From Nitrososphaerales archaeon (GTDB lineage Archaea; Thermoproteota; Nitrososphaeria; Nitrososphaerales; JACAEJ01): a stretch of 64,000 nt of DNA. The notes below the pieces were generated by a model. It was not told where the DNA came from. It saw nothing but the letters and a program-made list of their open reading frames with translations, and searched no databases. The translations under genes were made by a program, and so were the position numbers. The stretch lies in contig JACAEJ010000036.1 in NCBI GenBank assembly GCA_013388925.1, positions 4,600 through 68,599 of the forward strand, in the 5' to 3' direction. This document shows positions 19,317-59,054 of this stretch, piece after piece (the first letter of the stretch is position 1; each line of letters begins with the position of its first letter).

Positions 19317-19634
19317 TTGGCAATATGTAAAAAGTGTGGAGCCGAGCTTCCCGAAGGAGCGAAATTCTGTCCTAACTGTGGGATTCGTTTGGGTAAGATG
19401 ATGGAGGAGGAGTTCAAGGTCTCGTCCGAGGATCTGGTAAAGAAGGTCAAAGACCTGATCAGAGAAGGAAACGTTACAAAGATCATAGTGAAGAACGAAG
19501 AAGGCAGGATTCTGCTCGAAATGCCTGTCACAGCAGGAGTGGTTGGAACTATCTTGGCACCCTGGTTGGCAGCACTAGGGGTCATAGCAGCGCTGGCTAC
19601 AAAGTGCACCATATATGTAGAGAGAAGAGAGTAA
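19317..19634 (+). CDS. Zinc-ribbon protein with a DUF4342-like C-terminal domain
   Basis: CKKCGAELPEGAKFCPNCG is a zinc ribbon. The C-terminal part ends in a hydrophobic segment. The start is TTG. Confidence 0.45.
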   Translation: MAICKKCGAELPEGAKFCPNCGIRLGKMMEEEFKVSSEDLVKKVKDLIREGNVTKIIVKNEEGRILLEMPVTAGVVGTILAPWLAALGVIAALATKCTIYVERRE

Positions 19635-19640
19635 GTAAGA

Positions 19641-35705: not shown

Positions 35706-35780
35706 TTGTAAGAAATTTTTGTGCTACTACCTCATCTTTTAAAAGTATTTAAGATCGGTTTATCGTTTTATCGGTCTGAT

Positions 35781-43051: not shown

Positions 43052-43393
43052 ATGGATAAGAAATATGTTAGAGTGCATAGAATAACGAGCATAAACGACC
43101 CTGAAACGGGATTGCCAGGCAAGCAGATAGAGCTCGTAGAAGTCAGACCCAGAACGAGCGGAGTCCTCTCTGAAGCAGGGGACGAGGCTAGGCTTATAAA
43201 GGGCATACTCTCACAATTCCAGAATCTTGGCATATTTCCGCCCATAAGGGAGATAGTGCTACCCAAGATCACCATGTTCCTTACAGAAGATGAATACGAG
43301 AGACTGGGGATTAGGTTTGAAGTCAATGATACCTACGAGATTGTGTTAAAAGATGGGGCCATTTCTTTAAAGCCCTTTAAGGAAGGCATCTAA
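43052..43393 (+). CDS. Hypothetical protein
   Basis: A 113-aa ATG-initiated ORF. No motif was recognised. Confidence 0.4.
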   Translation: MDKKYVRVHRITSINDPETGLPGKQIELVEVRPRTSGVLSEAGDEARLIKGILSQFQNLGIFPPIREIVLPKITMFLTEDEYERLGIRFEVNDTYEIVLKDGAISLKPFKEGI

Positions 43394-43869: not shown

Positions 43870-44259
43870 TCAAGAGTGATCGCTTTTGGCAAAGTTCTTT
43901 AAAAGATCGACCACATCTGGCCTGGCAAGGCTATAAAACTTCCATTTCCCTTCCTTCCTCTTCTTTACTATGCCTACCCTCTCCAGTATCTCTAGATGGT
44001 GAGAAACATTTGGCTGAGTCATTTCCAACGCGACCATAATTTCGCAGACACACATCTCCTTCATCGAGAGTATCCTGATCATCTTTAGTCGAGTCGAGTC
44101 TCCTAGAGCCTTGAAGAATCTCTCCATAGGACTTAGTAGGTTTTCATCGTATACACTTCTCGCCAAGCGCTTCAGCTCTGTTGCATACTTCTCTACATTC
44201 TCAGCTTTACATATCCCAGAGGAGACGAGTCGTCGTAATCTTGCGTTGGAGACACTCAT
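43870..44259 (-). CDS. arsR: ArsR/SmtB-family metalloregulator
   Basis: It has a winged HTH, and the metalloid-binding CVCE motif sits in EMCVCEIMVAL. Confidence 0.8.
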   Translation of the reverse strand: MSVSNARLRRLVSSGICKAENVEKYATELKRLARSVYDENLLSPMERFFKALGDSTRLKMIRILSMKEMCVCEIMVALEMTQPNVSHHLEILERVGIVKKRKEGKWKFYSLARPDVVDLLKNFAKSDHS

Positions 44260-44276
44260 GTCATAGATAAGTTGTT

Positions 44277-44294
44277 AACATATTTAAATATGTT
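44277..44294. promoter_or_regulatory. Perfect 18-bp palindrome AACATATTTAAATATGTT upstream of arsR (candidate ArsR operator overlapping a TATA-like element)
   Basis: Read directly from the sequence. It lies 18 nt upstream of the arsR start codon, and a near-identical copy occurs at 45757-45774. Confidence 0.45.
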
Positions 44295-44367
44295 TTAAAG
44301 TGCGGCTCCTCTACCAAATTCTGAGCCCCGCTATTTGAAAGTTTGCTCATTGATTATCCCCTCTTGC

Positions 44368-45450
44368 TTACAGTTTACTCATCAATAATCCATATGCTAG
44401 GCCAAGTACTACACTGAAAGCCCATGCTATCAGTGCATAGGTAAGGACTACCTTCCACTTGACTATCCTTGATGTAGCGATCATATTTGGAATATCATAA
44501 GGTTGGCCCATCAGCCAAGAGAGTATGGCTGCACCGGACATGCCCAGATCCATCAACCCTCTACCTAAAACAATTTCAACCAATGTTGGAGTGTAGAGTG
44601 GCCCCCCGATGACTGATGCAAGAAGGACTCCTCCAACCCCATTCAGATATGTAGCTACCAATTCTTCAGGAAGGAAGGCTACCAGATAGCTGACAACTAG
44701 AAGCCCTATGAAGAAGTATGGAAGTATCCGCCTGCCCAAGAAGCCGCCGAATTTTAGTACACCGGTCAACCTCTCGTCGAGAGGGGGTTTGACAGTTTCT
44801 GTGCTGGAAGTGGCCACTCCAAGATTTGGTCGATGCTCAGCTTCGATCCTCTTACCCCAAGGTGTCTTGGATATGATCACCCCTGCAGCGACAGCAGTAA
44901 CCAGAGAAGCAATGATTCTTACAACTGCGATCTCCCAAGATAGAATCTCACCCGTAAGCAAGATCGTAAGTATATTGGCTGCTGGAGCCATGAGGAGGAA
45001 AGAGATAGCAGGACCTATGCCCGCACCGGTGTATAGGATCCCTGCGAACAAGGGGACCATAGTACACGAACAGACGGTGAAGAAAGGCGCAAATCCCGCG
45101 GCTAAAGCATACCCTTGGACTTTCCCACTTCCCATATGCTTTGTGATCAAGGATTTTGGCATGAATTCGTAAACCAAGCCTGCAGCAACAAAAGCAAAAA
45201 GGAGGCATATCCAACCATGAGTTAAATAGTCCCAGATGTAGACAAGGGGAATCTCCCACAAGGGAAGGATTTGAAGATGAGCTGGCTGAATGGTGGGAGC
45301 AAGCGAATAGGCCATAATCCTCGAATACACAAGGGCTGCAATGACCAAGACTACGAATGTAAGCAGTAATGCAGTTCGTGGTCTCCTTGTGCCCTCCCTC
45401 ATCTTGTATACCTCTCCTAGCGGATTATCTGTCATGGATTCCTCCTCCAT
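44368..45450 (-). CDS. COG0701/ArsP-like permease
   Basis: It is a polytopic membrane protein with the vicinal cysteine pair TVCSCT that is typical of COG0701 permeases found in ars operons. Confidence 0.6.
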   Translation of the reverse strand: MEEESMTDNPLGEVYKMREGTRRPRTALLLTFVVLVIAALVYSRIMAYSLAPTIQPAHLQILPLWEIPLVYIWDYLTHGWICLLFAFVAAGLVYEFMPKSLITKHMGSGKVQGYALAAGFAPFFTVCSCTMVPLFAGILYTGAGIGPAISFLLMAPAANILTILLTGEILSWEIAVVRIIASLVTAVAAGVIISKTPWGKRIEAEHRPNLGVATSSTETVKPPLDERLTGVLKFGGFLGRRILPYFFIGLLVVSYLVAFLPEELVATYLNGVGGVLLASVIGGPLYTPTLVEIVLGRGLMDLGMSGAAILSWLMGQPYDIPNMIATSRIVKWKVVLTYALIAWAFSVVLGLAYGLLMSKL

Positions 45451-45463
45451 CTGTTCGACTGCC

Positions 45464-45727
45464 TTATCTAGGTGCCCTATCCATGAGCCACTTCTTCACT
45501 TCTTTATACTTCGGTATCTCCCCCTGAGATACGATCTCATTGTTGATGATGATCGCTGGAGTGAAAAGAATGCCAAGCTTCGCAATCTCCTTGAGATCTT
45601 TGATTTCCTGCACGTCAGCGGCAAGCTGAAGCTCAATTAGAGCATTTACCACCAGTTTTTTTGTCTCCTGGCATCTAGGGCAACCAGACCCAAGAACCTT
45701 TACAGTTCCAAGCGTCTTCACACCCAT
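45464..45727 (-). CDS. Small thioredoxin-fold protein (redox-active disulfide protein 2 type)
   Basis: The 87-aa product has the N-terminal VLGSGCPRCQ CxxC motif. Confidence 0.7.
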   Translation of the reverse strand: MGVKTLGTVKVLGSGCPRCQETKKLVVNALIELQLAADVQEIKDLKEIAKLGILFTPAIIINNEIVSQGEIPKYKEVKKWLMDRAPR

Positions 45728-45756
45728 CTTATCACCCTAAGTTCAAGGAGTAAATC

Positions 45757-45774
45757 AACATATTTAAATATATT
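45757..45774. promoter_or_regulatory. Second copy of the ars palindrome (AACATATTTAAATATATT, 17/18 match) in the divergent thioredoxin-like/ACR3 promoter region
   Basis: Read directly from the sequence. It lies between the start codons at 45727 (minus strand) and 45805 (plus strand). Confidence 0.4.
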
Positions 45775-45804
45775 TATGCAAATAAATACTATCAACCAGA
45801 GGCT

Positions 45805-46854
45805 TTGCACACCATGTGTATGAGACCAGTCAAGGTTGGGGGACTTGGATGTATTGAAAAGCTACTCGCAGTATGGATTGCACTTTGCATCGTAATAGGT
45901 CTGTTGCTTGGGAAGTATCTGCCTGAACTGAGCAAGCATCTTGAGATTGGCATCCCAATAGGATTGTTTCTGATGATATATCCTGCGATGACCAAGATAA
46001 GAATAGAAGAGCTAAAGGATGCATTCAAAAGTAAGAGGCAGGTTGGCGTCATCGTCTTCTTCAATTATATGGTGAATCCGTTTCTGCTATATGCCCTCGG
46101 GTTCATATTCTTTGAGAACATTCTTCCTTTTTTTGGTCTTATAACTCTTGAGACGGCGAGACATCTTTGGACAGGGTTGATTTTGCTTGGTGTTGCTCCT
46201 TGCATTGCCATGGTTCTAGTGTGGACAGATCTAGCAAAAGGAAACGGGCCTCTTGGAATAGTTCTTATGGCCTGGAACTCGATTATTCAAGTCTTTACCA
46301 CCCCACTTTACATAGCATTGCTTGTAGGGACATACATAGCGATAGATATTGTCTTGATCGGTGAGAGCGTCCTTCTATACCTTGGTCTACCATTGCTCTT
46401 CGGCGTGATTACTCGAAGAGAAGTGATAAAGCGAAAATCTGAGGATTGGTTGAACAATAAATTGATCCCTTACTACAATGCCATGCAGTTGCTAGCGCTT
46501 CTCTTCACAATGGTAGTCATGTTCTCCCTTAGAGGCGGGGTGATAATTGATAACCCCAATCTAATTTGGCAGATGGCTGTCCCTATAGTCTTGTTCTTCT
46601 TTCTACTCTTCAACCTTGTTTACTACACCACAAGACGCATAGGGTACAATTATGAAGACGCTGCGACGATGGGCTTTCACTGTACCGGTAGAAACTTTGA
46701 ACTGGCTATCGCGATAGCCTTAACCGCTTTCTCATTTATGCCGATGGTGGCTGTCTCAACCGTTGTAGGTCCACTTATCGAGATCCCTGTGATGTTGACG
46801 ATTGTCTGGATGGCGTTGAAAAGGAAGAATAAATCTGCAAATCCTTCGTACTAA
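45805..46854 (+). CDS. acr3: ACR3-family arsenite efflux transporter
   Basis: There are 10 hydrophobic helices, and the conserved Cys sits in LGVAPCIAMVLVW. The start may be an internal Met a few codons downstream. Confidence 0.85.
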   Translation: MHTMCMRPVKVGGLGCIEKLLAVWIALCIVIGLLLGKYLPELSKHLEIGIPIGLFLMIYPAMTKIRIEELKDAFKSKRQVGVIVFFNYMVNPFLLYALGFIFFENILPFFGLITLETARHLWTGLILLGVAPCIAMVLVWTDLAKGNGPLGIVLMAWNSIIQVFTTPLYIALLVGTYIAIDIVLIGESVLLYLGLPLLFGVITRREVIKRKSEDWLNNKLIPYYNAMQLLALLFTMVVMFSLRGGVIIDNPNLIWQMAVPIVLFFFLLFNLVYYTTRRIGYNYEDAATMGFHCTGRNFELAIAIALTAFSFMPMVAVSTVVGPLIEIPVMLTIVWMALKRKNKSANPSY

Positions 46855-47411: not shown

Positions 47412-48431
47412 TTATGGTCTCATTCCACATAAAATAGCTATCATCAAAGATGAGGCCGTAATGTCTGCCGTAGTACCGGGGTTCAACCTACTGCCTGAAT
47501 CTCTTAAATCCCTGTCAAATCGATTCAATGCTCTCCTTCCCGCTTCAGAAGTCATCCCTCCCAACTTCAAAACCCTCTCAGCTCTTCTGGAAACTTTCTT
47601 GGCTTCAATCAATCCTATCTTGACTGCTCTTACAATGCCTTCTGTCTGCTTCAACCCGACCTTTCTAGCGATGAATGTATCGGGATGCTTCGTCAGTATT
47701 GTCAAGAAGGTGTGAACTGTTGCTATGTTGATATCCCCCATCTTTTCATAAACATTCATAAGAGTTCTGTAACCCAAATCAAAAGAAATCTTCATACCAT
47801 TGGTTAGCTCCTTTGCTACATTGTCCCATTTAGACGAAACTTTCATCAACTGGTATAGGTTGAGACCATGTTCCATCATCCTATCCTTTAAATCATGACT
47901 CAAAAGGTCTGGCACAGTTCTTGCCTTCAATCGACCTAGGGCTGCAGTGCCAGATTCGATGATGGCATCACAAACATGTATTGCATCTTGATAAGTTGTC
48001 GCCTTCATGATCTTTAACAGCATAGAACGCCAACCATTCGGCTCTATCCTACCAAATCTTGTAAATGCCAGCCCAGCCGATGCCGCCAAAGGGACGAAGA
48101 GCATGACTATACCCAAATGAGTATTTCCTCCTTTATGCCATGATCTTACTTTATGAACAGCCTCTTTGATGTAATTGCCAATTCCTATATCTTTTATATC
48201 GATTCGATCAAGACCTGTGTTTATCCCCCTTAACGCAACCTCCATTATTGAAGGCCCAATGGCTACAGAGCCAGCCAGATAATGCTCGAAGCGTGTATCT
48301 ATGAAGTCTGCATCCCTGTGAACATTTCCTGGCTTTGGTGTGCCGCTCACCTCCAAAGCTGCTGCAAGCTGGGCTGCCACCATTATGTCGTTAGCAGTAC
48401 TTAGAAAATCTTTTTCCATGTTACCCACCAT
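47412..48431 (-). CDS. Triphosphoribosyl-dephospho-CoA synthase (CitG/MdcB)-like protein
   Basis: AAALEVSGTPKPGNVHRDADF matches the CitG N-terminal motif (E..L.PKPGLVD). Length and helical content also fit. Confidence 0.7.
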   Translation of the reverse strand: MVGNMEKDFLSTANDIMVAAQLAAALEVSGTPKPGNVHRDADFIDTRFEHYLAGSVAIGPSIMEVALRGINTGLDRIDIKDIGIGNYIKEAVHKVRSWHKGGNTHLGIVMLFVPLAASAGLAFTRFGRIEPNGWRSMLLKIMKATTYQDAIHVCDAIIESGTAALGRLKARTVPDLLSHDLKDRMMEHGLNLYQLMKVSSKWDNVAKELTNGMKISFDLGYRTLMNVYEKMGDINIATVHTFLTILTKHPDTFIARKVGLKQTEGIVRAVKIGLIEAKKVSRRAERVLKLGGMTSEAGRRALNRFDRDLRDSGSRLNPGTTADITASSLMIAILCGMRP

Positions 48432-48531
48432 GGACGATCCTCTGCGATTTATCCTTACTCATTTTGACAGGAATTTAGAACGCATTGAGGCACCCCATTC
48501 TTTAAATATTGCACCGACTGATGCAATTGCG

Positions 48532-49461
48532 ATGGTAATGCAAAAAAAGATTGGAAAGACCTTCGTCATATCTTTTGTCTTCTTAATGATCCTGCCAGCG
48601 ATATTGACATCCTATGTTGGTGCTACTGAAGCTCAAAAACCATCCCTTTCCGTAGGTAATTATTGGGCGTATGGAGTTGAATACCTCGACCCCGATTCGG
48701 GAATTGTCACAATGAACGGGACGACTACCAGAGAGATTATCGGAGAATCCAACGTTACCATCGACACAGAATTGTATGAATGCTTCGTAGTAAAGATAGA
48801 AGGTAGCTGGCAAGATGCAACAGCAACAGTCACTTGGACTTTGAATGGTATGATCTACCTAGTTAAGTCCGATCTGTGTACTGTGAAAGAGGATATGGAA
48901 ATAACGCTGATAATAGGAGAAGAGGTCACTCTTAATCAAATCTCCAATGTAACCTACCATTCTCCACTTAAGGAATGCGACTTCCCCCTAACTGAAGGGA
49001 AGAACTGGACTGTCAGTACAACAAAGACTGAGACGATAACTTATCCTGGAGAACCCCCAGATACTAAGACTACTCATGTTGCCCGAAACTACACTGTAGG
49101 CATGACTATGGATAGAGTAACGGTGGATGCAGGAACCTTCGATACTTTTGTTATTCGTTACGCAACTTCAGACTCTATCTATGAACAATACTACTCTTCA
49201 GGTGCTGGTGGTAATGTTATGGAGTTAGTATATAGAAGGGTAGATGAGCAATTGACGACAAGGATGGAATTGATGGAGACAAATTTCATAGCGCCCAGTG
49301 GACCGTTAGAGTGGTGGGTCTGGTTGGCGATAGCCATAATCATTGTCGTTGCAGTGGGTATCACTTATATCTTCATTATCAGAATGAGAAAACCATCCAC
49401 TCCGAGCGGGACGGCAAAGATGGCACTCGCTGCCAACTTTTCATCCCCCTCTATTTTTTAA
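48532..49461 (+). CDS. Secreted or cell-surface protein with an N-terminal signal anchor and a C-terminal TM helix
   Basis: The internal ATG gives MVMQKKIGKTFVISFVFLMILPAILTSYVGA. There are several N-x-S/T sequons and a C-terminal WWVWLAIAIIIVVAVGITYIFII. The track start at 48340 would overlap the CitG-like gene. Confidence 0.45.
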   Translation: MVMQKKIGKTFVISFVFLMILPAILTSYVGATEAQKPSLSVGNYWAYGVEYLDPDSGIVTMNGTTTREIIGESNVTIDTELYECFVVKIEGSWQDATATVTWTLNGMIYLVKSDLCTVKEDMEITLIIGEEVTLNQISNVTYHSPLKECDFPLTEGKNWTVSTTKTETITYPGEPPDTKTTHVARNYTVGMTMDRVTVDAGTFDTFVIRYATSDSIYEQYYSSGAGGNVMELVYRRVDEQLTTRMELMETNFIAPSGPLEWWVWLAIAIIIVVAVGITYIFIIRMRKPSTPSGTAKMALAANFSSPSIF

Positions 49462-49485
49462 ATAACTGCGTAAAGTAGATGAGTA

Positions 49486-50505
49486 GTGACAGACCATCCT
49501 AGAATGCGTGAAGGCGATTTCCTGAAGATCTATGATGGAACCATCTTCGAGGTAAAAGGATTATCTCATCCTTCAGGAAGGGTCATTGCCTTCATTAGGT
49601 ACATTCCAGATCTTAAAGGTGATAGGAAGCTCGATGGTAAATCCTATCGAAAGGTCTACTTCATGGAAGAGAGATACAGGATATTAAAGGAGAGATATCC
49701 TCAGTTCCTGATCTTCGATGACGCTTTTGGTGAATATATGCCCGAAGTCGATTTTTCGAGCATCCTCCATGTTTACAAACCACAGGATAGGTTGCGCGAG
49801 ATAAGAAAAAATGATCAACTGGATAAATTAGAGAGGCAGGCACTGCTCTTCACAGAGACATTAAAGAGAGAAGCAAAGATACCATGGAGTAATTTGGGCA
49901 TTACTGGTTCCATATTGGTGGGGCTCCATACTGATAAATCTGATATGGACATAATAATTTATGGCATAAGAAACTGCCTTCGAGTTCGTGGTGCTATGCA
50001 AGGCCTTTTGGCGTCAGAGCAGTATGTCTCACGCTATAGGATGAAAGATTTGAGAAGGCTATATCAATTCCGTGTAAAAGATACGGTTATGCCTTTCGAA
50101 GAATTTGTGAAGCATGAAATCAGAAAGAGCTTCCAAGGTGTATTCGGTGGTAGAGAGTTCTTCATAAGATACATCAAGGATTGGGATGAGGTCAAGGAGA
50201 AGTATGGTGAGGTAATATACAAGCCTGAAGGATACGCAAAGATAAGAGCCAAGATCACTGATGATTCTGAGTCCATGTTCACACCATGTGTATACAGAGT
50301 GGAAGACGTAGAAGTCATTGAAGGGCAAGAATGGCTTGAATTGAGAGAAATATCATCTTTTAGAGGGAGGTTCTGTGAACAGGCAAGGAACGATGAGACA
50401 GTCATTGCTCAGGGCAAGATCGAAAGAGTAATTACCGCTGGTGAAGATTACCACAGGATTCTATTAGGTAGCAGACCGACAGACTACATGATCACTTTAA
50501 CATAA
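49486..50505 (+). CDS. Predicted Pol-beta-superfamily nucleotidyltransferase with a C-terminal OB-like region (paralog 1)
   Basis: GITGSILVGLHTDKSDMDIIIYG fits the hG[GS]-x9-13-DxD NTase motif. It aligns over its full length with the next gene. Confidence 0.5.
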   Translation: MTDHPRMREGDFLKIYDGTIFEVKGLSHPSGRVIAFIRYIPDLKGDRKLDGKSYRKVYFMEERYRILKERYPQFLIFDDAFGEYMPEVDFSSILHVYKPQDRLREIRKNDQLDKLERQALLFTETLKREAKIPWSNLGITGSILVGLHTDKSDMDIIIYGIRNCLRVRGAMQGLLASEQYVSRYRMKDLRRLYQFRVKDTVMPFEEFVKHEIRKSFQGVFGGREFFIRYIKDWDEVKEKYGEVIYKPEGYAKIRAKITDDSESMFTPCVYRVEDVEVIEGQEWLELREISSFRGRFCEQARNDETVIAQGKIERVITAGEDYHRILLGSRPTDYMITLT

Positions 50506-50558
50506 CAGAATCAGATAGAAATATGAACAAATAAGTACCTTGATCTCTGTGATAACAT

Positions 50559-51617
50559 ATGGTCGAAAGAAGTTACAAGGACAAGGACTTCATAAAAACG
50601 GTTGAAGGTCTCTTCTTCTGTGTCGTTGGATACATTCACCCTTATGACAGAGTGATATCTTACCTTAGGTACTTTCCCAGCTCTTTTGGCAAGTGGGGCA
50701 GAGCTTCTGTAAGGTATGCCCGAGCAATGCCTTCTTACACCATCCCTTACCTGTTAAAGAACATAGAAACACTAAGAAGAGATTTTTCAGATTACATCTT
50801 TTACTCAGATGTCTTCAATACGCTGATGTCGGCAGTGCCTCGTTATAAAATATATGAGCATCATAGACCTGAGGATGGACTACATCGAATATTGAAGCTT
50901 GAGGGACCCGACTCTCTCCAAAAGAGAGCCATCGAACTCGCCAGTCTCATCTCGAATATAAGTGGCATATCTCTGAAGCATATCGGTGTGACAGGATCGA
51001 TCCTCATAGACATCCACAAACCAAAATTCTCGGATGTAGATATCGTTATTTATGGAAGGAACAACTCTCTCAAGGCCAAAGAAGCCCTCTTGTCCTATTA
51101 CAGTGAGGAGGGGAGCAAAGTTCGCAAGCTTTATGGAGACGCTTTGAACAAATGGTGTGAGGAAAAGGTTAGGGACTATCCCCTGACCTTCGAGGAAGCT
51201 AGAAAGATCTACAACAGGAAATGGAACTATGGTCTGTTCAAGGAAAGGAACTTCTCCATACATCCGGTGAGGCTCGACTCAGAAATTAGGGAGATTTATG
51301 GCGACAGGATCTACACTCCTATAGGCATGACAAAGATAAGAGCAAGAATATCTGATGCATCAGAATCTATCTTTCTTCCTCACACCTACTCTTTGCAAAG
51401 AATCATAGTTGAGGAGGGCAAGAAAAAACAGGACATTAGAGAAGTCACATCCTACGAGGGATTGTACGGTGGAATCTTCGAACATGGAGATGAAATATTG
51501 GCTAGAGGAATGTTAGAAGAAATCATAGATAAGAAGGCTGAGGAAGTCTACTATCGTGTCTTGATAGGCTCCCTTGAAGGGAAAGGTACAGAATATATGA
51601 AATCAACGGACCCTTAA
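50559..51617 (+). CDS. Predicted Pol-beta-superfamily nucleotidyltransferase with a C-terminal OB-like region (paralog 2)
   Basis: GVTGSILIDIHKPKFSDVDIVIYG is the NTase motif. IRARISDASESIFLPHTY in this protein aligns with IRAKITDDSESMFTPCVY in paralog 1. Confidence 0.5.
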   Translation: MVERSYKDKDFIKTVEGLFFCVVGYIHPYDRVISYLRYFPSSFGKWGRASVRYARAMPSYTIPYLLKNIETLRRDFSDYIFYSDVFNTLMSAVPRYKIYEHHRPEDGLHRILKLEGPDSLQKRAIELASLISNISGISLKHIGVTGSILIDIHKPKFSDVDIVIYGRNNSLKAKEALLSYYSEEGSKVRKLYGDALNKWCEEKVRDYPLTFEEARKIYNRKWNYGLFKERNFSIHPVRLDSEIREIYGDRIYTPIGMTKIRARISDASESIFLPHTYSLQRIIVEEGKKKQDIREVTSYEGLYGGIFEHGDEILARGMLEEIIDKKAEEVYYRVLIGSLEGKGTEYMKSTDP

Positions 51618-51658
51618 AGTGGCAAAATTAATAAAGGGTAGGAATCCTACCCCCCATT

Positions 51659-52048: not shown

Positions 52049-53347
52049 TTGGTCATAGTTCAGAACATAGTCTGCCCGATCTGTGGTTGTGCATGTGACG
52101 ATATAGAAGCTACGGTTGAAGGCAACAAGATAGTAAAGGTCAAGAATTCCTGCTCAATATCGGCTAGCAAATTCCTTAACTTTTGGAAGGAAAGAAATCT
52201 ATCCAGTTTAATCAGAAAGAACGGCGAACTAGCGCCTACAAGTCTGGAGGAGGCTGTAGAGAAGACTGCTGAGATTTTAGTGAATGCAGAGTACCCTTTG
52301 GTCTATGGCTTTGCCCTGTCGGGGTGTGAGGCCCAGGCTGTAGGTGTAGAACTTGCTGAAGAAATTGGTGGAGTCATCGATAACCAGACTGTAACTTGCC
52401 ATGGTCCTAGTGCATTAGGGTTGCACGATGTAGGAATGCCGGGATGTACCCTTGGGGAAGTCAGGCATAGGGCTGATCTTATCGTCTACTGGGGGAGCAA
52501 CTTTCAGGAGGCACATCCAAGACATTTGGCAAGATACTCCGCCCTATCGGAAGGAAGATTTAGAAAAGGGAGAAAGGACAGGAAGGTCGTAGTCATAGAC
52601 GTTAGAAAGACTCCAAGTGCTAGAGTTGCAGATCTTTTCATTCCTATTGCACCGGGTCAGGATTATGAGCTCATGTCTGCCCTGCGTATGGCTCTAAACA
52701 ATGATGAAATCGAGGAAGAGAGTGTAGCCGGACTACCTGTTGATAAGATCGAAGAGTTGGCAGAAATGCTAAGGAGTTGTCAATTCGGAATCCTATTTTA
52801 TGGATTGGGTCTGACGATGAGTCGAGGAAAGGAAAGAAACATAGATCAAGCGGTATCTCTAGTTTGTGATCTAAATAAATGGACGAAATTTGTCATAATG
52901 CCCATGAGAGGGCACTATAATGTAACTGGAATGAATGAAGTGACAGCATGGCAGACAGGTTACCCATACGCAGTGGACTTCAGTCATGGTTATCCATGGT
53001 ATAATCCTGGGGAAACGACATCGATTGATATTCTGCGCAGAGGAGAGTGTGACGCAGCACTCATAGTCGCATCTGACCCATTGGCACATTTCCCCAAAGA
53101 AGTAGGCCAAAACTTGTGCAAGATCCCCTTCGCTGTCATAGACCCTCATATGTCCATGACCGCCCTTGCTGCAGATGTCGTGATGCCTTGTGCATTCACG
53201 GGAATAGAGGCTGAGGGTTCTGCCTATAGAATGGATACTGTTCCTCTGCCCCTCAAGAAGGTTATAGAATCCCCTCCAGGAATACTTTCCGATGAAGAGT
53301 TGGTTGGCATGATACTGAAAAGGGTGAAATCAAAAAGGAGGCGATAG
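52049..53347 (+). CDS. fwdB: Formylmethanofuran dehydrogenase subunit B
   Basis: The N-terminal FeS motif is VCPICGCACDDI. The product is 432 aa and the gene sits between fwdD and fwdA. The start is TTG. Confidence 0.8.
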   Translation: MVIVQNIVCPICGCACDDIEATVEGNKIVKVKNSCSISASKFLNFWKERNLSSLIRKNGELAPTSLEEAVEKTAEILVNAEYPLVYGFALSGCEAQAVGVELAEEIGGVIDNQTVTCHGPSALGLHDVGMPGCTLGEVRHRADLIVYWGSNFQEAHPRHLARYSALSEGRFRKGRKDRKVVVIDVRKTPSARVADLFIPIAPGQDYELMSALRMALNNDEIEEESVAGLPVDKIEELAEMLRSCQFGILFYGLGLTMSRGKERNIDQAVSLVCDLNKWTKFVIMPMRGHYNVTGMNEVTAWQTGYPYAVDFSHGYPWYNPGETTSIDILRRGECDAALIVASDPLAHFPKEVGQNLCKIPFAVIDPHMSMTALAADVVMPCAFTGIEAEGSAYRMDTVPLPLKKVIESPPGILSDEELVGMILKRVKSKRRR

Positions 53348-53350
53348 AGG

Positions 53351-55072
53351 ATGGAGTTGCTGATAAAGAATGGAGTTGTTTACGATCCCAAGAATGGGAT
53401 AGATGGAGAGGTTATGGACGTAGCCATCAGGGACAAGAAAGTAGTGGACAGAGTTGATGAGTCAAAGGCATACGTCATAGATGCATCAAATAAGCTTATC
53501 ATGCCAGGTGGGGTTGATCTTCACTCACACATAGCAGGACCAAAATGCAATATTGGGAGGATGCTTCGCCCCGAAGATCACTATAAGGATGTTGAGCCTA
53601 GGACACAGGTAAAGCGCTCTGGGGTAGGGTACTCCGTCCCCTCTAGCTTCACTATTGGCTATAGATATGCCATACTTGGTTACACAACTGTATTTGAACC
53701 AGCAAACCCGCCCCTAAAGATGTTGCACTGCCACCATGAATTCAGGGATATACCTATACTCGACAAGGGCTGTTTCGTTATGTTCGGCAACAACTGGTTC
53801 GTCATGGAGTACCTGAGGGATAACAAACTCGATGAATGTGCAGCGTACGTAGCATGGACTCTAGACGCAACAAAGGGATATGCCATAAAGATAGTAGACC
53901 CAGGATGTGTTGAGGCTTGGAAGTGGGGAGATGTAGAATTCTTGGATATATTGTGGGGGAGGCCTGAAGAAATAGATGAACCAGTGCCTCGCTTTGGGGT
54001 AACATCAAGGGAGATCGTGAGAGGTCTTTGTAAGGTCAACAAGCTCCTAAATCTGCCACATCCAATACACGTCCATGCGAACGGTCTAGGCACACCAGGC
54101 AATTATCAAACTACTATCGACACTATGGACTGCGTTAAAGATCTTGCCGAAGAAGATAGGCCAGCGATACACATGACTCATGTCCAATTCAATGGGTATG
54201 CTGGTTCAGACTGGATTACTATCAGGTCTGGCGCTCACGAGATAATGAAGTATGTCAACGCCAATAAGCATGTGACCATAGATCTGGGTCAAGTCATCTT
54301 CACCGACACTACCACAATGACGGGCGACGGACCCTTCGAGTACAAGTTGCACTTGCTAACAAAGAACAAGTGGACAAATGCTGATGTGGAATCTGAGGAA
54401 GGGGCTGGCCTTGTGCCAATACACTACAAGAAGAGCAACTTCGTTCATGCGACCATGTGGACGATCGGGTTGGAGTTGGCTCTCCTCGCAAAAGACCCTT
54501 GGAGAATCTTCATGACTACTGATCATCCGAATGGCGGACCTTTTACCCACTATCCTAGGGCAATAACATGGCTCATGAGCAAGGAAGCTAGGAAGAGAAC
54601 TCTAGACAAGATTTCGAAGCGGGCAAGATCGAGGAGTGACCTAGATAACATGGACCGTGAATATTCATTCTACGAAATAGCCATTGCAACAAGGGCTGCA
54701 AATGCTAGGATTCTTGGGTTGAAAGATAAGGGGCATCTCGGGGTAGGCGCAGACGCCGATGTTGCCATATACGACATAAATCCAAGAGAGGTTGATCAAT
54801 CCAGAGACTACAAGAAAGTTCGTAAAGCCCTGAGCAAGGCAGCATTCACCATAAAAGAAGGAGAGATCGTGGTAAAAGACGGAGATATAGTCAAATCTAT
54901 TGAAGGAAGGACCTATTGGGTAAAGCCCAATCTACCAAGCGATCTTATGAATGCCATAACAAGCGATTTGACCAAGAAGTTCCGTGATTACTACACAGTA
55001 GAAATGGAGAACTTCAAGATACATGATAGATTCGTAACTAGATCCACGCCCATGCCCACTTACTACGGATAG
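53351..55072 (+). CDS. fwdA: Formylmethanofuran dehydrogenase subunit A (amidohydrolase)
   Basis: LIKNGVVYDPKNGIDGEVMDVAIRD, GGVDLHSH and the 573-aa length match FwdA/FhcA. Confidence 0.85.
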   Translation: MELLIKNGVVYDPKNGIDGEVMDVAIRDKKVVDRVDESKAYVIDASNKLIMPGGVDLHSHIAGPKCNIGRMLRPEDHYKDVEPRTQVKRSGVGYSVPSSFTIGYRYAILGYTTVFEPANPPLKMLHCHHEFRDIPILDKGCFVMFGNNWFVMEYLRDNKLDECAAYVAWTLDATKGYAIKIVDPGCVEAWKWGDVEFLDILWGRPEEIDEPVPRFGVTSREIVRGLCKVNKLLNLPHPIHVHANGLGTPGNYQTTIDTMDCVKDLAEEDRPAIHMTHVQFNGYAGSDWITIRSGAHEIMKYVNANKHVTIDLGQVIFTDTTTMTGDGPFEYKLHLLTKNKWTNADVESEEGAGLVPIHYKKSNFVHATMWTIGLELALLAKDPWRIFMTTDHPNGGPFTHYPRAITWLMSKEARKRTLDKISKRARSRSDLDNMDREYSFYEIAIATRAANARILGLKDKGHLGVGADADVAIYDINPREVDQSRDYKKVRKALSKAAFTIKEGEIVVKDGDIVKSIEGRTYWVKPNLPSDLMNAITSDLTKKFRDYYTVEMENFKIHDRFVTRSTPMPTYYG

Positions 55073-55077
55073 ACATC

Positions 55078-55803
55078 CTATAACCTCGAGAGGTCCTCCT
55101 TTCTTATCTTTAAAGTATGGAGGGCTGTGGAGACCAGTACTCCAGAGATGCCAAGATTACGAAGTGAGATTATATCGACAATGTCTCTTACTCCTCCTCC
55201 CATTATTATCGGGATGCTTATAGAGCCAACAAGCCCTCTTGCTAATTCGATATCTGCCCCCGATTCACTTCCTACCCTGAAGAGGTCTAGGATGATAAGT
55301 TCCATAACGCCCACCAATTCTAGCCTTTTTGCCAAGATTTTAGGGCTCATCCTTGCTATCTCTTTATTCTTAGAAAGGACTCTGCCCTTCTCTAGGTCAA
55401 TAGAGACTATGACTCGCTTCTCACCAGCAAATTCGAGGATGCTTTTTAGCACCCTAAGATTCGTTAGTGTCTCAGTCCCGACAACTACTTTTTCAACCCC
55501 AGCCTGAAGAAGATCTCTTACTTTTTGAACATCATTGACACCTGAATCCACCATGATCTTCATCCTGCTCAATTCGTAGATTCTTCTCAGTATACTCGTG
55601 TTATCGCCACGTCTCATAATGCTATCCAAGTCAGCAATGTACAACTCTCTGAACCCAAACTTCGTTTTCAAAGCTAGAGTTATGTCTATTGGATTGGAAG
55701 TTTCACATAAGTGGCTCTTTATGGCTTGATAATGATCTCTCTGGCCACCCTTGGCATGGACAACAACTCCCCCCATTATATCTATAACTGGGATAATCCT
55801 CAT
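55078..55803 (-). CDS. HisA/HisF-family TIM-barrel protein (the type associated with archaeal C1-cofactor gene clusters)
   Basis: MRIIPVIDIMGGVVVHAKGG..., VVVGTETL and IPIIMGGGVRD follow the HisA/HisF (beta-alpha)8 phosphate-binding pattern. Confidence 0.65.
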   Translation of the reverse strand: MRIIPVIDIMGGVVVHAKGGQRDHYQAIKSHLCETSNPIDITLALKTKFGFRELYIADLDSIMRRGDNTSILRRIYELSRMKIMVDSGVNDVQKVRDLLQAGVEKVVVGTETLTNLRVLKSILEFAGEKRVIVSIDLEKGRVLSKNKEIARMSPKILAKRLELVGVMELIILDLFRVGSESGADIELARGLVGSISIPIIMGGGVRDIVDIISLRNLGISGVLVSTALHTLKIRKEDLSRL

Positions 55804-55946
55804 ATTGTCAATTCTTGTAATTGGATGAAGATAAGACTTCTGATAATCCTCAACTTGGTTCCGTTATCATGGGTGGGTTCTCATTTGCTAGGTCAAAATC
55901 GATTTAGTAACCCTCATTTACCAGAGCTATCTAATTCTGCTACAGT

Positions 55947-57161
55947 TTGAAGGTTGCCATATTCGAGTATCTATCTGGAGGAGGCTTGTCAGGAAAGGTT
56001 TTACCATCAAGCATATTGAGTGAAGGATACGGCATGCTCCGTTCAGTTTTAACGGACTTTAAGGATGCTGGCTACAAAACCTCTACTTTGTTGGATTCGA
56101 GACTATCCATGTTTCAGCCACCATTAAAAGCAGATGATATCCTCTCAGTGGATTCTTTAGAAGAACTTAAGGTCAGATTTATGGATTTGTTAGAAGACTC
56201 TGATGCTTCTTTGTTGATAGCCCCCGAATCGGAGGGAATATTAGCTAAGTTCTTGAGCTTCAACAGAGAGTTAGGCATCGATTCTCTAAATTGCACTATT
56301 GACTCAATCGAAACTGTAAGCAACAAATCGAATCTCTATGAGAAACTAGAGGAAAGAGGACTACCCATACCAGAGACTGAATTGGTCAGAGTCGAAGAAG
56401 GTTTTGGGAAAGTTCAAAATATTATTGAGGAGATGAACTTCCCTCTTATCATCAAACCTATAAATGGCACAGGATGCCAAGGACTGAGCATTGTGAGGAA
56501 GCCTTCACAGTTGCCGCTAGCAATAAACAGGATAAAAGAAGAAGCGATGACTGGCGAGTTTCTGATACAAAAGTTTGTAGTAGGTGTGCATGCGAGTGTT
56601 AGCCTAATATCAAATGGCAAAGAGGCAGTACCACTTACCTTGAACCTCCAGATTTTGGATCTAAACACGCCCGACAAGATTTCGAGCTACATCGGTGGTT
56701 TAGTCCCTCTCGATCACAAATTAAGGAAAGAAGCTCTTCACACTGCCAAGAAGGCTGTAGAAATCTTCAGAGGGTTGGTGGGATATATCGGAGTAGACCT
56801 AGTTTTATCAAAAATTGGACCTATATTAATCGAGATAAATCCTCGCTTGACGGTATCATATATCGGTCTGAGGATGGTATCAAATTTGAACTTGGCTGAA
56901 GCAATAGTCAAAGCTTCTTTAGATGGTAAACTGCCAGAGAACTTTGATCCTTCGGGCTATTCTGCCTTCTCGAAAGAAACCCTGCCCATCTTTAGTAATG
57001 ATTCACTCAAAGGGACGTATTCAATGAAAGAAGTCGTTACTCCCCCTTTTCCTCTTAATGAAGAAAACTATGCCATCTTGGCTACGAAGGGAGATAATCC
57101 TAAGAAAGCCAAAGACGGTCTTCAAAAGGTAAAGCACCGCCTTATGAGTATGGTTGAATAA
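55947..57161 (+). CDS. mfnD: ATP-grasp ligase, MfnD (tyramine--L-glutamate ligase)-like
   Basis: ATP-grasp core (FPLIIKPINGTGCQGL, FLIQKFV, IEINPR). It is first in an operon with the mfnF-like and mfnE-like genes. Confidence 0.55.
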   Translation: MKVAIFEYLSGGGLSGKVLPSSILSEGYGMLRSVLTDFKDAGYKTSTLLDSRLSMFQPPLKADDILSVDSLEELKVRFMDLLEDSDASLLIAPESEGILAKFLSFNRELGIDSLNCTIDSIETVSNKSNLYEKLEERGLPIPETELVRVEEGFGKVQNIIEEMNFPLIIKPINGTGCQGLSIVRKPSQLPLAINRIKEEAMTGEFLIQKFVVGVHASVSLISNGKEAVPLTLNLQILDLNTPDKISSYIGGLVPLDHKLRKEALHTAKKAVEIFRGLVGYIGVDLVLSKIGPILIEINPRLTVSYIGLRMVSNLNLAEAIVKASLDGKLPENFDPSGYSAFSKETLPIFSNDSLKGTYSMKEVVTPPFPLNEENYAILATKGDNPKKAKDGLQKVKHRLMSMVE

Positions 57162-57173
57162 GAGGCAAAATAG

Positions 57174-58247
57174 ATGAAGATCATCGGTTGGGATATAGGT
57201 GCAACAAACATCAAGGCAACATTGATGGAGGTTAGGGATGTTCGAGCTTACAGGCTCAAGACAATCACACATTATTTTCCGATATGGATCGAAGGAAAAG
57301 AGAGGCTTTCCTTCATTCTGAAAGAGTTGAAGGAAGAGATGGCTGAAGGCTCTCCTATAAGTGCTATAGGCCTAACGATGACTGCCGAGCTCTCCGATGT
57401 TTATGAGACAAAGAAGGAGGGAGTGAACCATATACTAGATTGTGTCATGGAAGTCTTTCCTAAGGAGCAAATATCTGTGCTTGATTCAGATGCTCGCTTT
57501 AAGAATGTCGAAGAAGCCAGGGAAAATTATCTAAAGGTCGCTGGCGCCAATTGGGCTGGCACGGCCTGGATGGTCTCCAAATGGGTAAAAGACTGTATTC
57601 TCTTGGATGTCGGTAGCACTACAACCGATATAATCCCCATCATAAAGGGAAGGGTAATGGCAAGAGGAAAGACAGATCTGGATAGACTAGCCACAGGCGA
57701 GCTCATCTATACAGGTGCCTTAAGAACCAACGTTGCGACCATCGTTGATGCAGTCCCTGTCAGAGGTATCATGACAAGGGTATCATCAGAGCTCTTTGCT
57801 CTATCTTCTGATGTGCACCTTATCCTTGGAAATATAAGCCAAGATGAATACACGACTGAAACTGCTGATAAGAGAGGTAAGACAAAGAAAGAGGCTATGT
57901 CCAGGCTTGCAAGGATAGTGTGTGCTGATACGTACATGCTAAAGGAAGATGAGATAGTTGCCATGGCGAATTATGTCTATAGAAAACAGCTGAATAAGAT
58001 AGCAGACGGGATTATTCAAGTGTACGATGTGGTAATGGATTCTCTCAAGAATGAATTGTCTCTTGTTGTGACAGGAATAGGGAGAGAATTCTTGGGGATA
58101 AAAGCAGCAGAAAGATTAAGATTCAAAAGTATCAACAACTTGGCACAGATCATCGGCAAAGATGCATCTGTTGCCAGTCCTTCTGTGGCTGTAGCGTTGA
58201 TGTTATCTTATGAACAAGGGGCAAGAGAGATAGAATGGTCTTTGTAG
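57174..58247 (+). CDS. mfnF: Hydantoinase-A-like H4MPT/methanofuran pathway protein, MfnF-like
   Basis: The N-terminus IGWDIGATNIKA and the later LLDVGSTTTDIIP are ASKHA phosphate motifs. Size and context fit MJ0840-type MfnF. Confidence 0.6.
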   Translation: MKIIGWDIGATNIKATLMEVRDVRAYRLKTITHYFPIWIEGKERLSFILKELKEEMAEGSPISAIGLTMTAELSDVYETKKEGVNHILDCVMEVFPKEQISVLDSDARFKNVEEARENYLKVAGANWAGTAWMVSKWVKDCILLDVGSTTTDIIPIIKGRVMARGKTDLDRLATGELIYTGALRTNVATIVDAVPVRGIMTRVSSELFALSSDVHLILGNISQDEYTTETADKRGKTKKEAMSRLARIVCADTYMLKEDEIVAMANYVYRKQLNKIADGIIQVYDVVMDSLKNELSLVVTGIGREFLGIKAAERLRFKSINNLAQIIGKDASVASPSVAVALMLSYEQGAREIEWSL

Positions 58248-58900
58248 CAAAGATAGGTGGTAGCCTTGCTGAAGACCATAGCGGTCTAGTTAGGTTATGT
58301 CAGGAATTGATCGCTGTCTCCAAAAAATATGAGGTTGTAATCGTGCCTGGAGGGGCAAGATTTGCGGACACTGTAAGATATTTCTATGACAAGTTAAGCC
58401 TGTCTGACGATACCGCTCATAAAATGGCGATACTGGCAATGGATCAGTATGGATTCCTCCTAAAGGACGTTATGGGCAGCGCCATATTGACACACAGCCT
58501 CGAAGACTCTTTACAAATTGCCAAGAATAGAACTTTGCCTATCATCCTACCATCAAAGATCATGCTTTCTCTAGACCCCCTAAAGCACTCTTGGGGAGTT
58601 ACTTCCGATTCCATATCAGCCTTCATAGCCTCATCATTAAAAGCTGAAAAGTTGATCTTGGTCAAGGATGTTGATGGAATCTTCACAGAAGACCCTATCA
58701 GGAAGCGTGATACAAGGATGTTAAGGAAGATTTCTGCGAAGAGGCTATTGAAGGGTAGGACTGGTTGTGTGGATGAACTTCTGCCAACTATCCTTATCGA
58801 GAAGCAACTCAAATGCTATGTAGTGAACGGCAAGCATCCAGATAGAATCAAGAGTATACTGGAGGGCAAACCGGACATCTATACGGAGATTATTCCTTAA
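58235..58900 (+). CDS. mfnE: Amino-acid-kinase-family protein, MfnE-like
   Basis: KIGGSL, VIVPGGA and LVKDVDGIF are aspartate/glutamate/uridylate-kinase fold motifs. It overlaps the mfnF-like gene by 13 nt. Confidence 0.55.
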   Translation: MVFVAKIGGSLAEDHSGLVRLCQELIAVSKKYEVVIVPGGARFADTVRYFYDKLSLSDDTAHKMAILAMDQYGFLLKDVMGSAILTHSLEDSLQIAKNRTLPIILPSKIMLSLDPLKHSWGVTSDSISAFIASSLKAEKLILVKDVDGIFTEDPIRKRDTRMLRKISAKRLLKGRTGCVDELLPTILIEKQLKCYVVNGKHPDRIKSILEGKPDIYTEIIP

Positions 58901-59054
58901 TAAGTATCCTCATAATGCTCAAACTTTTTTAGTCGAACCATCTGGTTAATTGATCCAGAAAGGCTTAAATTTCATCATCTAGAGTTTTTCAACCAAGTCG
59001 GTTCAACTAGAATGGATCATAAATTCTCCTCACTAAAGAACCTTTCACATAGAG

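Follow-up and report, generated by a model that had tools for sequence, protein, structure and literature searches.

Gene Organisation of the Locus

The DNA analysed here is a stretch of 64,000 nt (the window) from contig JACAEJ010000036.1 of a Nitrososphaerales archaeon (assembly GCA_013388925.1). It carries a gene related to citG and, about 1 kb away, two tandem genes for nucleotidyltransferases (NTases) of the polymerase beta (Pol-beta) type, designated NT1 and NT2, which lie just upstream of the formylmethanofuran dehydrogenase genes fwdDBA. These three genes, referred to below as the module, probably specify enzymes making a tetrahydromethanopterin-type C1 cofactor, and not a maturation system for Fwd. 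The features of the locus, in window coordinates, are as follows:

47412–48431, minus strand: CitG-like gene, 339 aa, Pfam family CitG (PF01874)
48432–48531: intergenic spacer of 100 bp that separates the CitG-like gene from the divergently oriented genes of the plus strand (read from the sequence)
48532–49461, plus strand: probable lineage-specific gene between the CitG-like gene and NT1 (ORF and translation)
49486–50505, plus strand: NT1, Pol-beta-type nucleotidyltransferase, 339 aa from the GTG at 49486
50559–51617, plus strand: NT2, Pol-beta-type nucleotidyltransferase, 352 aa
51659–52042, plus strand: fwdD (NCBIfam FwdD, E = 1.6e-30)
52049–53347, plus strand: fwdB (NCBIfam formylmethanofuran dehydrogenase subunit B, E = 5.5e-170)
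53351–55072, plus strand: fwdA (NCBIfam formylmethanofuran dehydrogenase subunit A, E = 5.4e-243)

An earlier note, made from the letters of this DNA, had placed the CitG-like, NT1 and NT2 genes at these positions, and all three are present in the list of open reading frames (ORFs). It had NT2 ending 42 nt before fwdD; the two genes are indeed adjacent, but the gap is 41 nt (51618–51658). The next two gaps, fwdD to fwdB and fwdB to fwdA, are 6 and 3 nt. Since the genes run in the same direction and the gaps are 41, 6 and 3 nt, NT1, NT2 and fwdDBA probably form one transcription unit. The order NT1-NT2-FwdD-B-A is also present in three of the related loci compared below (L002, L013 and L043). 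The start codon of NT1 may be the ATG at 49504 instead of the GTG at 49486.

The distance of about 1 kb between the CitG-like gene and NT1 was also given correctly, but the interval is not empty, as it holds the gene at 48532–49461. The translated product of this gene has a hydrophobic, signal-like segment at its N-terminus, a hydrophobic segment resembling a membrane anchor at its C-terminus, and no match in Pfam. Of the 80 loci, only L002, the closest relative, has kept the gene (59% identity); it is probably a lineage-specific insertion, not a member of the module. A TATA-like box read from the sequence (TTTAAATA, 48502–48509) lies about 23 nt 5′ of its ATG at 48532 and may have a promoter role. 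Genes for citrate lyase, malonate decarboxylase or carrier proteins were not found around the module in the ORF list of the window or by Pfam.

The CitG-like Protein

Residues 19–331 of the CitG-like protein align with positions 3–283 of the 284 positions of PF01874 (E = 2.8e-64), an end-to-end match that bears out the description of the gene as CitG/MdcB-like. Against the NCBIfam equivalog models it scores 39.2 bits for MdcB (cutoff 282) and 28.3 bits for CitG (cutoff 272), some 240 bits under the cutoffs, and just 47 residues align with E. coli CitG by BLASTP (E = 1e-4). Because the scores fall so far below the equivalog cutoffs and the alignment is limited to 47 residues, the protein belongs to the ATP:dephospho-CoA triphosphoribosyl transferase family without being an ortholog of CitG or MdcB. 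The nearest solved chain is 3h9p (E = 2e-18), an uncharacterised protein named 'putative triphosphoribosyl-dephospho-CoA synthase'.

NT1 and NT2 Represent a Three-Domain Branch of the Pol-beta Superfamily

NT1 and NT2 are full-length paralogs, with 32% identity across 341 columns (E = 4e-52), much more than chance would give. NT2 matches the Pfam model NTP_transf_2 (E = 1.2e-4, 22.9 bits with a cutoff of 21) and NT1 has no Pfam match at E values up to 0.01; across the family, 17 of 18 members match PF01909 (best E = 2.1e-5). Neither protein has an NCBIfam match, and neither falls into a specific Pfam or NCBIfam family. Sequence searches of the PDB with the single proteins and with the family profile gave nothing significant for NT1 or NT2, the profile search returning a weak match of the family to the oligonucleotide-binding (OB) protein CcmE, in agreement with the OB fold described below. 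A hypothetical protein from a Nitrososphaerales metagenome-assembled genome (MAG) has the same sequence as NT2 (100% identity), and the closest relatives of NT2 carry the label Candidatus Methylarchaceae.

The catalytic motifs are fully preserved. The sequences G-[ST]-G-S and S-D-x-D are kept in 100% of 51 NT1-type and 78 NT2-type proteins, and are invariant in alignment A1 of the family too. A glutamate (E242 in NT2, E235 in NT1) that comes just after strand 230–237 of the NT2 model is 94–95% conserved and is a candidate for the third catalytic carboxylate. Residues invariant in both subfamilies include a His-Pro pair and a Tyr in the N-terminal domain, and Pro, Tyr, Gly and Glu in the OB domain; His27, Tyr38, Tyr277 and Glu320 are among the invariant positions. 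Conserved specifically in NT1 are K24, R47, K56, R196, E211, R228, T266, R293, R295 and C297, which include Arg or Lys at six positions (K24, R47, K56, R196, R228 and R293/R295); at corresponding or nearby positions NT2 has W46, Y60, W222, H235 and E300. These patterns suggest two active enzymes with different substrate pockets.

The AlphaFold2 model of NT2 (pLDDT 95.1, pTM 0.91) has three parts: the N-terminal domain, which extends from residue 1 as far as about residue 100, is rich in beta structure; the core is of the alpha/beta type and contains G146-S147 and D159-x-D161; and the C-terminal domain (residues 250–350) is all beta. Foldseek found no full-length structural relative of this model in the PDB. 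Residues 250–350 match SSB-type OB folds at a Foldseek probability of 0.99, with resemblance to SSB, RPA and the anticodon-binding domain of lysyl-tRNA synthetase. A second model, of residues 1–247 (pLDDT 95.4), matches poly(A) polymerase gamma (Foldseek probability 0.96), ANT(2″)-Ia (0.82) and an archaeal CCA-adding enzyme (0.72), and also CD-NTases. These matches of the core are weak, with E values of 4e-3 or worse and TM scores of about 0.25–0.35 (best match, E = 4e-3 and TM about 0.28).

Because the motifs and fold match those of the superfamily, E values are weak and a full-length structural relative was not found, the family belongs within the Pol-beta superfamily, where it has no close solved or curated relative. 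The hG[GS] and DxD motifs, and by prediction the fold of the core, are common to the family and the enzymes of PF01909 (poly(A) polymerase, class I CCA-adding enzyme, ANT(2″)-Ia and the CD-NTases), but the family differs from them in its unique three-domain layout, in which the core stands between an N-terminal beta domain with invariant His-Pro and Tyr and a C-terminal OB fold. Judged from sequence and model, the NTases form a new three-domain subfamily of Pol-beta enzymes. Part of this had been anticipated from the letters of the window: the paralogy of two adjacent full-length genes, the intact hG[GS]...DxD motif and the OB-like C-terminus are all seen here, and the Pfam, NCBIfam, PDB and Foldseek searches agree with the earlier statement that the family could be assigned to no characterised enzyme.

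A role in anti-phage defence, as for the NTases of CBASS and similar systems, was rejected, the PADLOC models giving no match for the CitG-like protein, NT1 or NT2 at E values up to 0.01.

Distribution and Subfamilies

A scan of one genome per species with family alignment A2 found relatives of the NTases in at least 520 genomes, and the best 80 loci were analysed. As these are the most similar of more than 520, they are biased to Thermoproteota and Asgard archaea. Neighbour families were obtained by our own ORF calling and BLAST clustering, each being labelled from one representative. Taxon labels are those of the MAG submitters, and the labels Aenigmatarchaeota, Deltaproteobacteria and Anaerolineae may reflect binning errors; several independent Chloroflexi-labelled family proteins exist (P0169, P0189). 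The 80 loci span Bathyarchaeia, Nitrososphaeria, several Asgard lineages, Hecatellales, Ignisphaera/Desulfurococcales, Nezhaarchaeota, Methanomethylicota and one Chloroflexi-labelled MAG. Among 1.84 billion representatives, 1,688 clusters formed at 50% identity make up the whole family.

The 80 loci hold 155 members of the family. Both an NT1-type and an NT2-type gene are present in 60 loci, and in 53 of these the two are adjacent, most commonly in the order NT1 then NT2 on the same strand. In a neighbour-joining tree the NT1 clade is clean (52 of 52 NT1 and 0 of 79 NT2 proteins). NT1 and NT2 are two ancient subfamilies. Eight Bathyarchaeia loci (L009, L015, L016, L022, L028, L035, L038 and L044) carry one or two further, more divergent paralogs, giving three to four NTase genes each; these extra copies score about 100–130 bits to either NT1 or NT2, which suggests further functional splitting of the family.

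An adjacent, very divergent pair of family genes, with about 27% identity to NT2, is found at L084:9144–11080, on the same contig as CdvA. Methanopterin or CitG-like genes were not found near this pair, and for this reason the family may also have members with another role.

NTases Are Linked to CitG-like Genes

In 35 of the 80 loci the NTases have, no more than 10 kb away and mostly directly beside them, a gene for a protein related to the CitG-like protein of the window. The linked loci come from Bathyarchaeia, Nitrososphaeria, Asgard archaea (including Jordarchaeia), Ignisphaera and the Chloroflexi-labelled L070. In a reverse scan, starting from CitG-like genes in metagenome contigs, 38 loci were 6 kb or longer, and 24 of these carried an NTase. 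By our own estimate, a single-copy gene of a genome of about 2 Mb would fall in such a window by chance in about 1% of cases. Set against this expectation, the two counts make it well supported that the NTases are partners of the CitG-like gene. The earlier note had suggested such a partnership, naming co-occurrence with citG-like or fwd/mfn genes in other genomes as the point on which to check it, and co-occurrence was found.

It is NT1 that stays with the CitG-like gene. In the reverse scan NT1 is the nearest NTase copy, either 19–65 bp away or about 930 bp away with a gene for an energy-coupling factor (ECF) S component in between, and the lone NTase found beside CitG in divergent lineages (L168, L169) falls in the NT1 clade. 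The Ignisphaera loci L076 and L077 have CitG followed by a single NTase.

The ECF S-component gene lies beside the CitG-like gene or the NTases in 23 of the 80 NTase loci and in 32 of 80 CitG-centred loci, often between the CitG-like gene and NT1 (for example in L012, L014, L021, L026, L027, L098, L102, L131 and L165). Its product has weak similarity to folate-family S components (E = 3e-8, under the cutoff), perhaps a sign that a precursor of the pterin type is taken up. The gene is often found together with one for a small winged-helix regulator.

In L005–L008 and L104, an AMP-phosphorylase-like gene (glycosyl transferase family 3 with PYNP_C) directly adjoins NT2. The product of AMP phosphorylase, ribose 1,5-bisphosphate, could be linked metabolically to the adenine from CitG-type enzymes, or the arrangement could be mere lineage synteny.

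The Recurrent Neighbours Are Genes of Methanopterin Synthesis

A CitG-like gene, or a methanopterin-synthesis or methanopterin-dependent gene, lies within 10 kb of the NTases in 55 of the 80 loci, and in 16 of 20 when loci of at least 20 kb are considered. The neighbour families, with the number of the 80 loci in which each occurs, are:

ECF S component, weakly folate-family-like: 23
Ftr: 19
FwdA: 13
CofE-like ligase: 12
DUF1464: 12
FwdB/D: 12
RFAP synthase MptG: 10
FwdC: 10
Dihydromethanopterin reductase DmrX (MJ0208 type): 9
GTP cyclohydrolase MptA: 9
DUF447: 9
MptN-like ATP-grasp: 9
DHPS-like pterin-binding enzyme (DUF6513 + Pterin_bind + DUF4346): 8
Mch: 8
MptE-like kinase: 7
Mer-like and Mtd: recurrent

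Several loci of divergent lineages bring many of these genes together, in clusters that are compact and co-directional. L100 has a cluster of DHPS-like, MptG, MptA, DUF1464, DmrX, MptE, DUF447, CitG, NT1 and NT2 genes. In L169, CitG is divergent from an NT1-type gene and is found with DUF447, FMN_red, flavoprotein, MptG and DHPS-like genes, and L082 has NT1-type, flavoprotein, DHPS-like, NT2-type, DUF447 and MptG genes preceded by pterin and methanofuran genes. The cluster of L168 consists of FwdB, FwdA, FwdC, Mch, ATP-grasp, CitG, ECF-S-like, radical SAM and NT1-type genes with Ftr alongside on the opposite strand, and in L170 a radical SAM, an NT1-like and an NT2-type gene stand beside Ftr and Fwd. 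Genes for EcfA and EcfT are found near the module in L168 and other loci.

The strongest single item tying NT1 to pterin chemistry is a natural gene fusion. Protein P0348 (505 aa) joins a hydroxymethyl-dihydropterin pyrophosphokinase (HPPK; Pfam E = 3e-40) to an NT1-clade domain, and its gene (L166:5626–7143; L167:1559–3076) is followed by flavoprotein and DHPS-like genes. The protein was recovered from two separate sources: one contig belongs to an NCBI assembly and another to a Logan run. The context of P0348 looks bacterial, with MacB/FtsX and GntR-aminotransferase genes.

DUF447 genes overlap or abut NTase or CitG-like genes at L082:11026–11589 and L169:8986–9642, and also in L005, L007, L008, L100 and L104, loci that include several unrelated lineages, making DUF447 a further uncharacterised candidate for a methanopterin side-chain step.

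Three further genes of these kinds are found elsewhere in the window:

18075–19154, minus strand: DUF1464 gene (tblastn with the cluster representative, 56% identity)
19644–20408, minus strand: MptE-like pterin diphosphokinase gene (tblastn with the cluster representative, 55% identity)
35721–37154, plus strand: radical SAM protein with an HMPTM zinc ribbon, of the methanopterin methylase type (Pfam Radical_SAM, E = 2.1e-22; Zn_ribbon_HMPTM, E = 4e-21)

The DUF1464 and MptE-like families of this region (18075–20408) are among those that recur beside NTases in other genomes. The lineages carrying the NTases encode methanopterin-dependent enzymes, as seen in the loci examined here and as reported previously (PMC11291895).

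A Possible Route to the Methanopterin Side Chain

The linkage to methanopterin genes makes it probable that the module takes part in the synthesis of a tetrahydromethanopterin-type cofactor. The biochemistry of the methanopterin side chain was outlined in the 1990s and, to our knowledge, genes for its last steps (reduction to ribitol, attachment of the alpha-ribosyl phosphate and formation of the ester with hydroxyglutarate) have never been assigned. The side chain consists of an aminophenyl-ribitol, the terminal hydroxyl of which bears an alpha-ribofuranosyl 5-phosphate esterified to (S)-2-hydroxyglutarate. CitG and MdcB use ATP as ribosyl donor, displacing the adenine and forming an alpha-glycosidic bond to give 2′-(5″-triphosphoribosyl)-3′-dephospho-CoA; CitX and MdcG then move the phosphoribosyl compound onto a serine hydroxyl with release of pyrophosphate. 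By analogy, this chemistry could be mapped one to one on the methanopterin side chain.

In the route proposed here, the CitG-like enzyme would use ATP as ribosyl donor, displacing adenine, and would link the ribose through an alpha-glycosidic bond to a methanopterin precursor, at the terminal hydroxyl of its aminophenyl-ribitol part, leaving a product with a 5″-triphosphate. An NTase would then take this triphosphoribosyl compound as its 'NTP', with an alcohol attacking the alpha-phosphate and pyrophosphate leaving. NT1 would be the likeliest NTase for this transfer, as it is the paralog that stays with CitG, and its extra Arg and Lys residues would suit a substrate pair of a triphosphate and a dicarboxylate. 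The attacking alcohol would be (S)-2-hydroxyglutarate in canonical methanopterin, or a similar alcohol, and the product would be the phosphodiester of ribose 5-phosphate and hydroxyglutarate that ends the methanopterin side chain. The logic would be that of CitG with CitX, or MdcB with MdcG, the acceptor being a small molecule instead of the serine of a carrier protein. NT2, with an intact catalytic centre and a different pocket, may form a hetero-oligomer with NT1 or carry out a second, related transfer. We consider this specific assembly of the tail, CitG-like enzyme first and NTase second, to be evenly balanced between right and wrong.

A number of points weigh against it. The steps are assigned by analogy, and the supposed parallel to CitX and MdcG does not extend to homology: family profile A1 compared with E. 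coli CitX gave an hhalign probability of 0.4 (E = 0.14), none of 18 family members matched the CitX or MdcG models of Pfam at E values up to 1, and the solved CitX structure 7dcm was not among the top 50 fold matches, so that membership of either family was rejected. White reportedly found, in 1996, that cell extracts added the ribose phosphate from phosphoribosyl pyrophosphate (PRPP) and that ATP was needed for the hydroxyglutarate step; by such a route, a CitG-type triphosphate would not be required. Both paralogs look active, and some Bathyarchaeia loci have three or four, when the making of one phosphodiester needs no several enzymes. OB folds most often bind nucleic acids.

The distribution of the family and its nearest context also count on this side. 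Cultured methanogens were not seen among the named NTase homologs listed in order of similarity, and the classical methanogens, which make hydroxyglutarate-containing methanopterin, may lack the family. As no Pfam or NCBIfam model covers it, the family would seem to be rare in cultured organisms. In the window itself, the nearest neighbours of the NTases are fwd and methanofuran genes, and some contexts, such as that of the NTases in L081 (Methanofastidiosia) and of the divergent pair of L084 beside CdvA, are uninformative.

Alternative Explanations

In the main rival explanation, the NTases would act at another ATP-dependent step of methanopterin synthesis, their linkage to CitG reflecting only a shared pathway. 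An example would be adenylylation of the phenolic hydroxyl of ribofuranosyl-hydroxybenzene phosphate, for its replacement by the nitrogen of aspartate, in the phenol-to-aniline conversion that White is said to have proposed; another would be nucleotide activation of a phosphorylated intermediate. This would share its pathway context with the side-chain route, one of the structural neighbours, ANT(2″)-Ia, adenylylates hydroxyls of small molecules, two active paralogs would fit two ATP-dependent steps, and the HPPK fusion puts NT1 near the early pterin steps. We nevertheless think it unlikely, since NT1 adjoins CitG far more often than MptG and the conserved neighbour families include no recurrent adenylosuccinate-lyase-like or aspartate-handling gene.

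Salvage is a second alternative, in which a pterin or a fragment of methanopterin would be imported by the ECF transporter and remodelled, the CitG-like enzyme and the NTases rebuilding its ribosyl-phosphate tail. The frequency of the S-component gene beside the module, in both the NTase and the CitG-centred loci, and the EcfA and EcfT genes of L168 and other loci are what one would expect of salvage. Many loci, on the other hand, join the module to complete gene sets for de novo synthesis (L100, L169 and L082), and we regard salvage as quite unlikely; it is a variant of the proposed side-chain route and not exclusive of it.

The earlier note had read the locus differently, suggesting that NT1 and NT2 could attach or build a ribosyl-phosphate-linked moiety for the Fwd/methanofuran system, which is explained by the fwd and methanofuran genes next to the module in the window. 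On this reading a CitG-derived phosphoribosyl prosthetic group would be joined covalently by NT1 and NT2 to an Fwd/Ftr/methanofuran protein, in the way that CitX and MdcG modify their carrier proteins. The known precedent for CitG with a transferase is protein modification, NT1 and NT2 are co-directional with fwdDBA in the window, L002, L013 and L043, and in 19 loci Ftr and NT2 are neighbours. Of the 80 loci, however, just 12–13 have Fwd genes within 10 kb of the NTases, and many loci, together with one gene fusion, tie the NTases to methanopterin synthesis with no Fwd gene nearby. The recurrent neighbour families include no acyl-carrier-like acceptor gene or other carrier-protein-like gene, no citDEF and no mdc genes, and the NTases have no detectable homology to CitX or MdcG. 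The solved structures of Fwd and Ftr from methanogens are not known to show such a modification, though those organisms may lack the NTases. Protein attachment within the Fwd/methanofuran system was not supported as the target of the module, and we judge it very unlikely.

Synthesis or tailoring of methanofuran, for example of its side chain, was suggested by the genes that follow fwdA in the window. Pfam and NCBIfam matches show a cluster of the methanofuran-synthesis type directly downstream of it (55078–60670):

55078–55803, minus strand: HisA/F-related gene
55947–57161: MfnD-like ATP-grasp gene
57174–58247: hydantoinase_A-like gene
58235–58900: MfnE-like amino-acid-kinase-family gene
59055–59930: CofE-like ligase
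59927–60670, minus strand: MfnB, 4-HFC-P synthase

In bacteria, the HisA/F-family protein Orf17 is needed for methylofuran, and Orf21 and Orf22 correspond to MfnE and MfnB (PMC8141765). Methanofuran-type genes (MfnB, MfnE-like kinase, MfnD-like ATP-grasp and HisA/F-related) are found within a few kb of the NTases in the window, L082 and L083, and 12 loci have the CofE-like ligase. Of the 80 loci, however, one has MfnB near the NTases and none has the MfnE-like kinase there, and because these neighbours are not conserved elsewhere a role in methanofuran synthesis was rejected as the principal explanation. Methanopterin contains a ribosyl phosphate but methanofuran does not, so that CitG-type chemistry would have no obvious place in it. 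We regard a methanofuran role as highly doubtful.

The analogy to citrate lyase could also be taken further, to a cofactor that is not free. The CitG-like enzyme would then make a triphosphoribosyl-activated carrier of the methanopterin type, which NT1 and NT2 would attach to a serine of a C1-pathway protein, to give a tethered, swinging-arm C1 carrier serving Fwd, Ftr and Mch. Such a carrier, which would be expected in Bathyarchaeia, non-ammonia-oxidising Nitrososphaeria, Asgard archaea and some Chloroflexi, seems most improbable.

A function in tailing, repairing or modifying RNA or tRNA, with the NTases working through their OB fold and the neighbourhood being coincidental, is scarcely credible: the OB fold does resemble those of SSB, RPA and the lysyl-tRNA synthetase anticodon-binding domain, and the core those of poly(A) polymerase and the CCA-adding enzyme, but all these structural matches are weak (E values of 4e-3 or worse, TM scores of about 0.2–0.35), and the linkage to CitG and methanopterin genes holds in distant lineages and in both domains of life and includes one HPPK fusion. 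TiaS, an archaeal ATP-using enzyme that likewise has an OB fold, had been named together with MdcG and CitX for structural comparison; TiaS-like tRNA modification was rejected, as the TiaS-type domains (catalytic, DUF1743) had no Pfam match at E values up to 1 and TiaS was not among the top 50 Foldseek matches of either model.

Comparison with Known Systems

The module resembles the CitG/CitX and MdcB/MdcG systems in that a CitG-family gene is coupled genetically to the gene of a dedicated transferase, and in the proposed two-step logic, where a triphosphoribosyl adduct formed from ATP would be transferred with loss of pyrophosphate. It differs in its acceptor, which would be a small molecule, and in that citDEF, an ACP acceptor and mdc genes are absent from the surroundings in the window and from the recurrent neighbours.

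A second likeness is to orf7, the CitG-like gene of the 'archaeal-like' tetrahydromethanopterin (H4MPT)/methylofuran islands of methylotrophic bacteria, where a CitG-family gene again stands beside mch and an ATP-grasp ligase gene (mch-orf5-orf7). The order of ATP-grasp then CitG is also found in L116, L123 and L168. The archaeal module differs in having one to four NTase paralogs as well; no NTase is among the island genes that the literature examined names, although none of those papers lists the genes in full. Methylotrophic bacteria make dephospho-H4MPT, in which the ribose is kept and the phosphate and hydroxyglutarate are lacking (PMC8141765). If the proposed side-chain route is correct, it would give a role to the long-unexplained orf7 of the H4MPT islands, and would explain why producers of dephospho-H4MPT might need CitG but not an NTase.

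The synthesis of coenzyme F420 by CofC and CofD offers a functional analogy only: a unit derived from a 2-hydroxy acid is joined via a phosphodiester after activation of the nucleotide type. The folds are unrelated, however, activation is by GTP, and no CofC or CofD homolog was seen in the loci.

The literature searched makes no mention of COG1665, of CitG together with methanopterin, or of an NTase in methanopterin synthesis, and the linkage of the NTases to CitG-like genes and methanopterin synthesis appears to be new with respect to it. The module supplies candidates, a CitG-like enzyme and a new three-domain NTase family, for the unassigned side-chain steps, and the mechanism is open to an in vitro test in which ATP and 2-hydroxyglutarate are supplied along with an aminophenyl-ribitol acceptor. 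Since the family is perhaps missing from classical methanogens, it could mark a different chemistry of the cofactor tail in the lineages that carry the module, and a marker of this kind would improve metabolic reconstruction from metagenomes.

Other Features of the Window

A scan for RNA elements between 46 and 57.5 kb gave only a sub-threshold match to the fluoride riboswitch, at 46695–46760 on the plus strand. Its score of 21.7 bits (E = 0.024) falls short of the gathering score of 34; it is located within an ORF of the SBF family and is most likely due to chance. This ORF belongs to an upstream cluster of the arsenic-resistance type (43870–46854), which comprises an ArsR-family regulator, an ArsP-type permease, a small thioredoxin-fold protein and an SBF/ACR3-family transporter, and has no relation to the CitG/NTase module. 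A gene of the Arcadin_1 family, described from an archaeal cytoskeletal gene set, is found at 43052–43393 on the plus strand (Pfam E = 1.2e-21).

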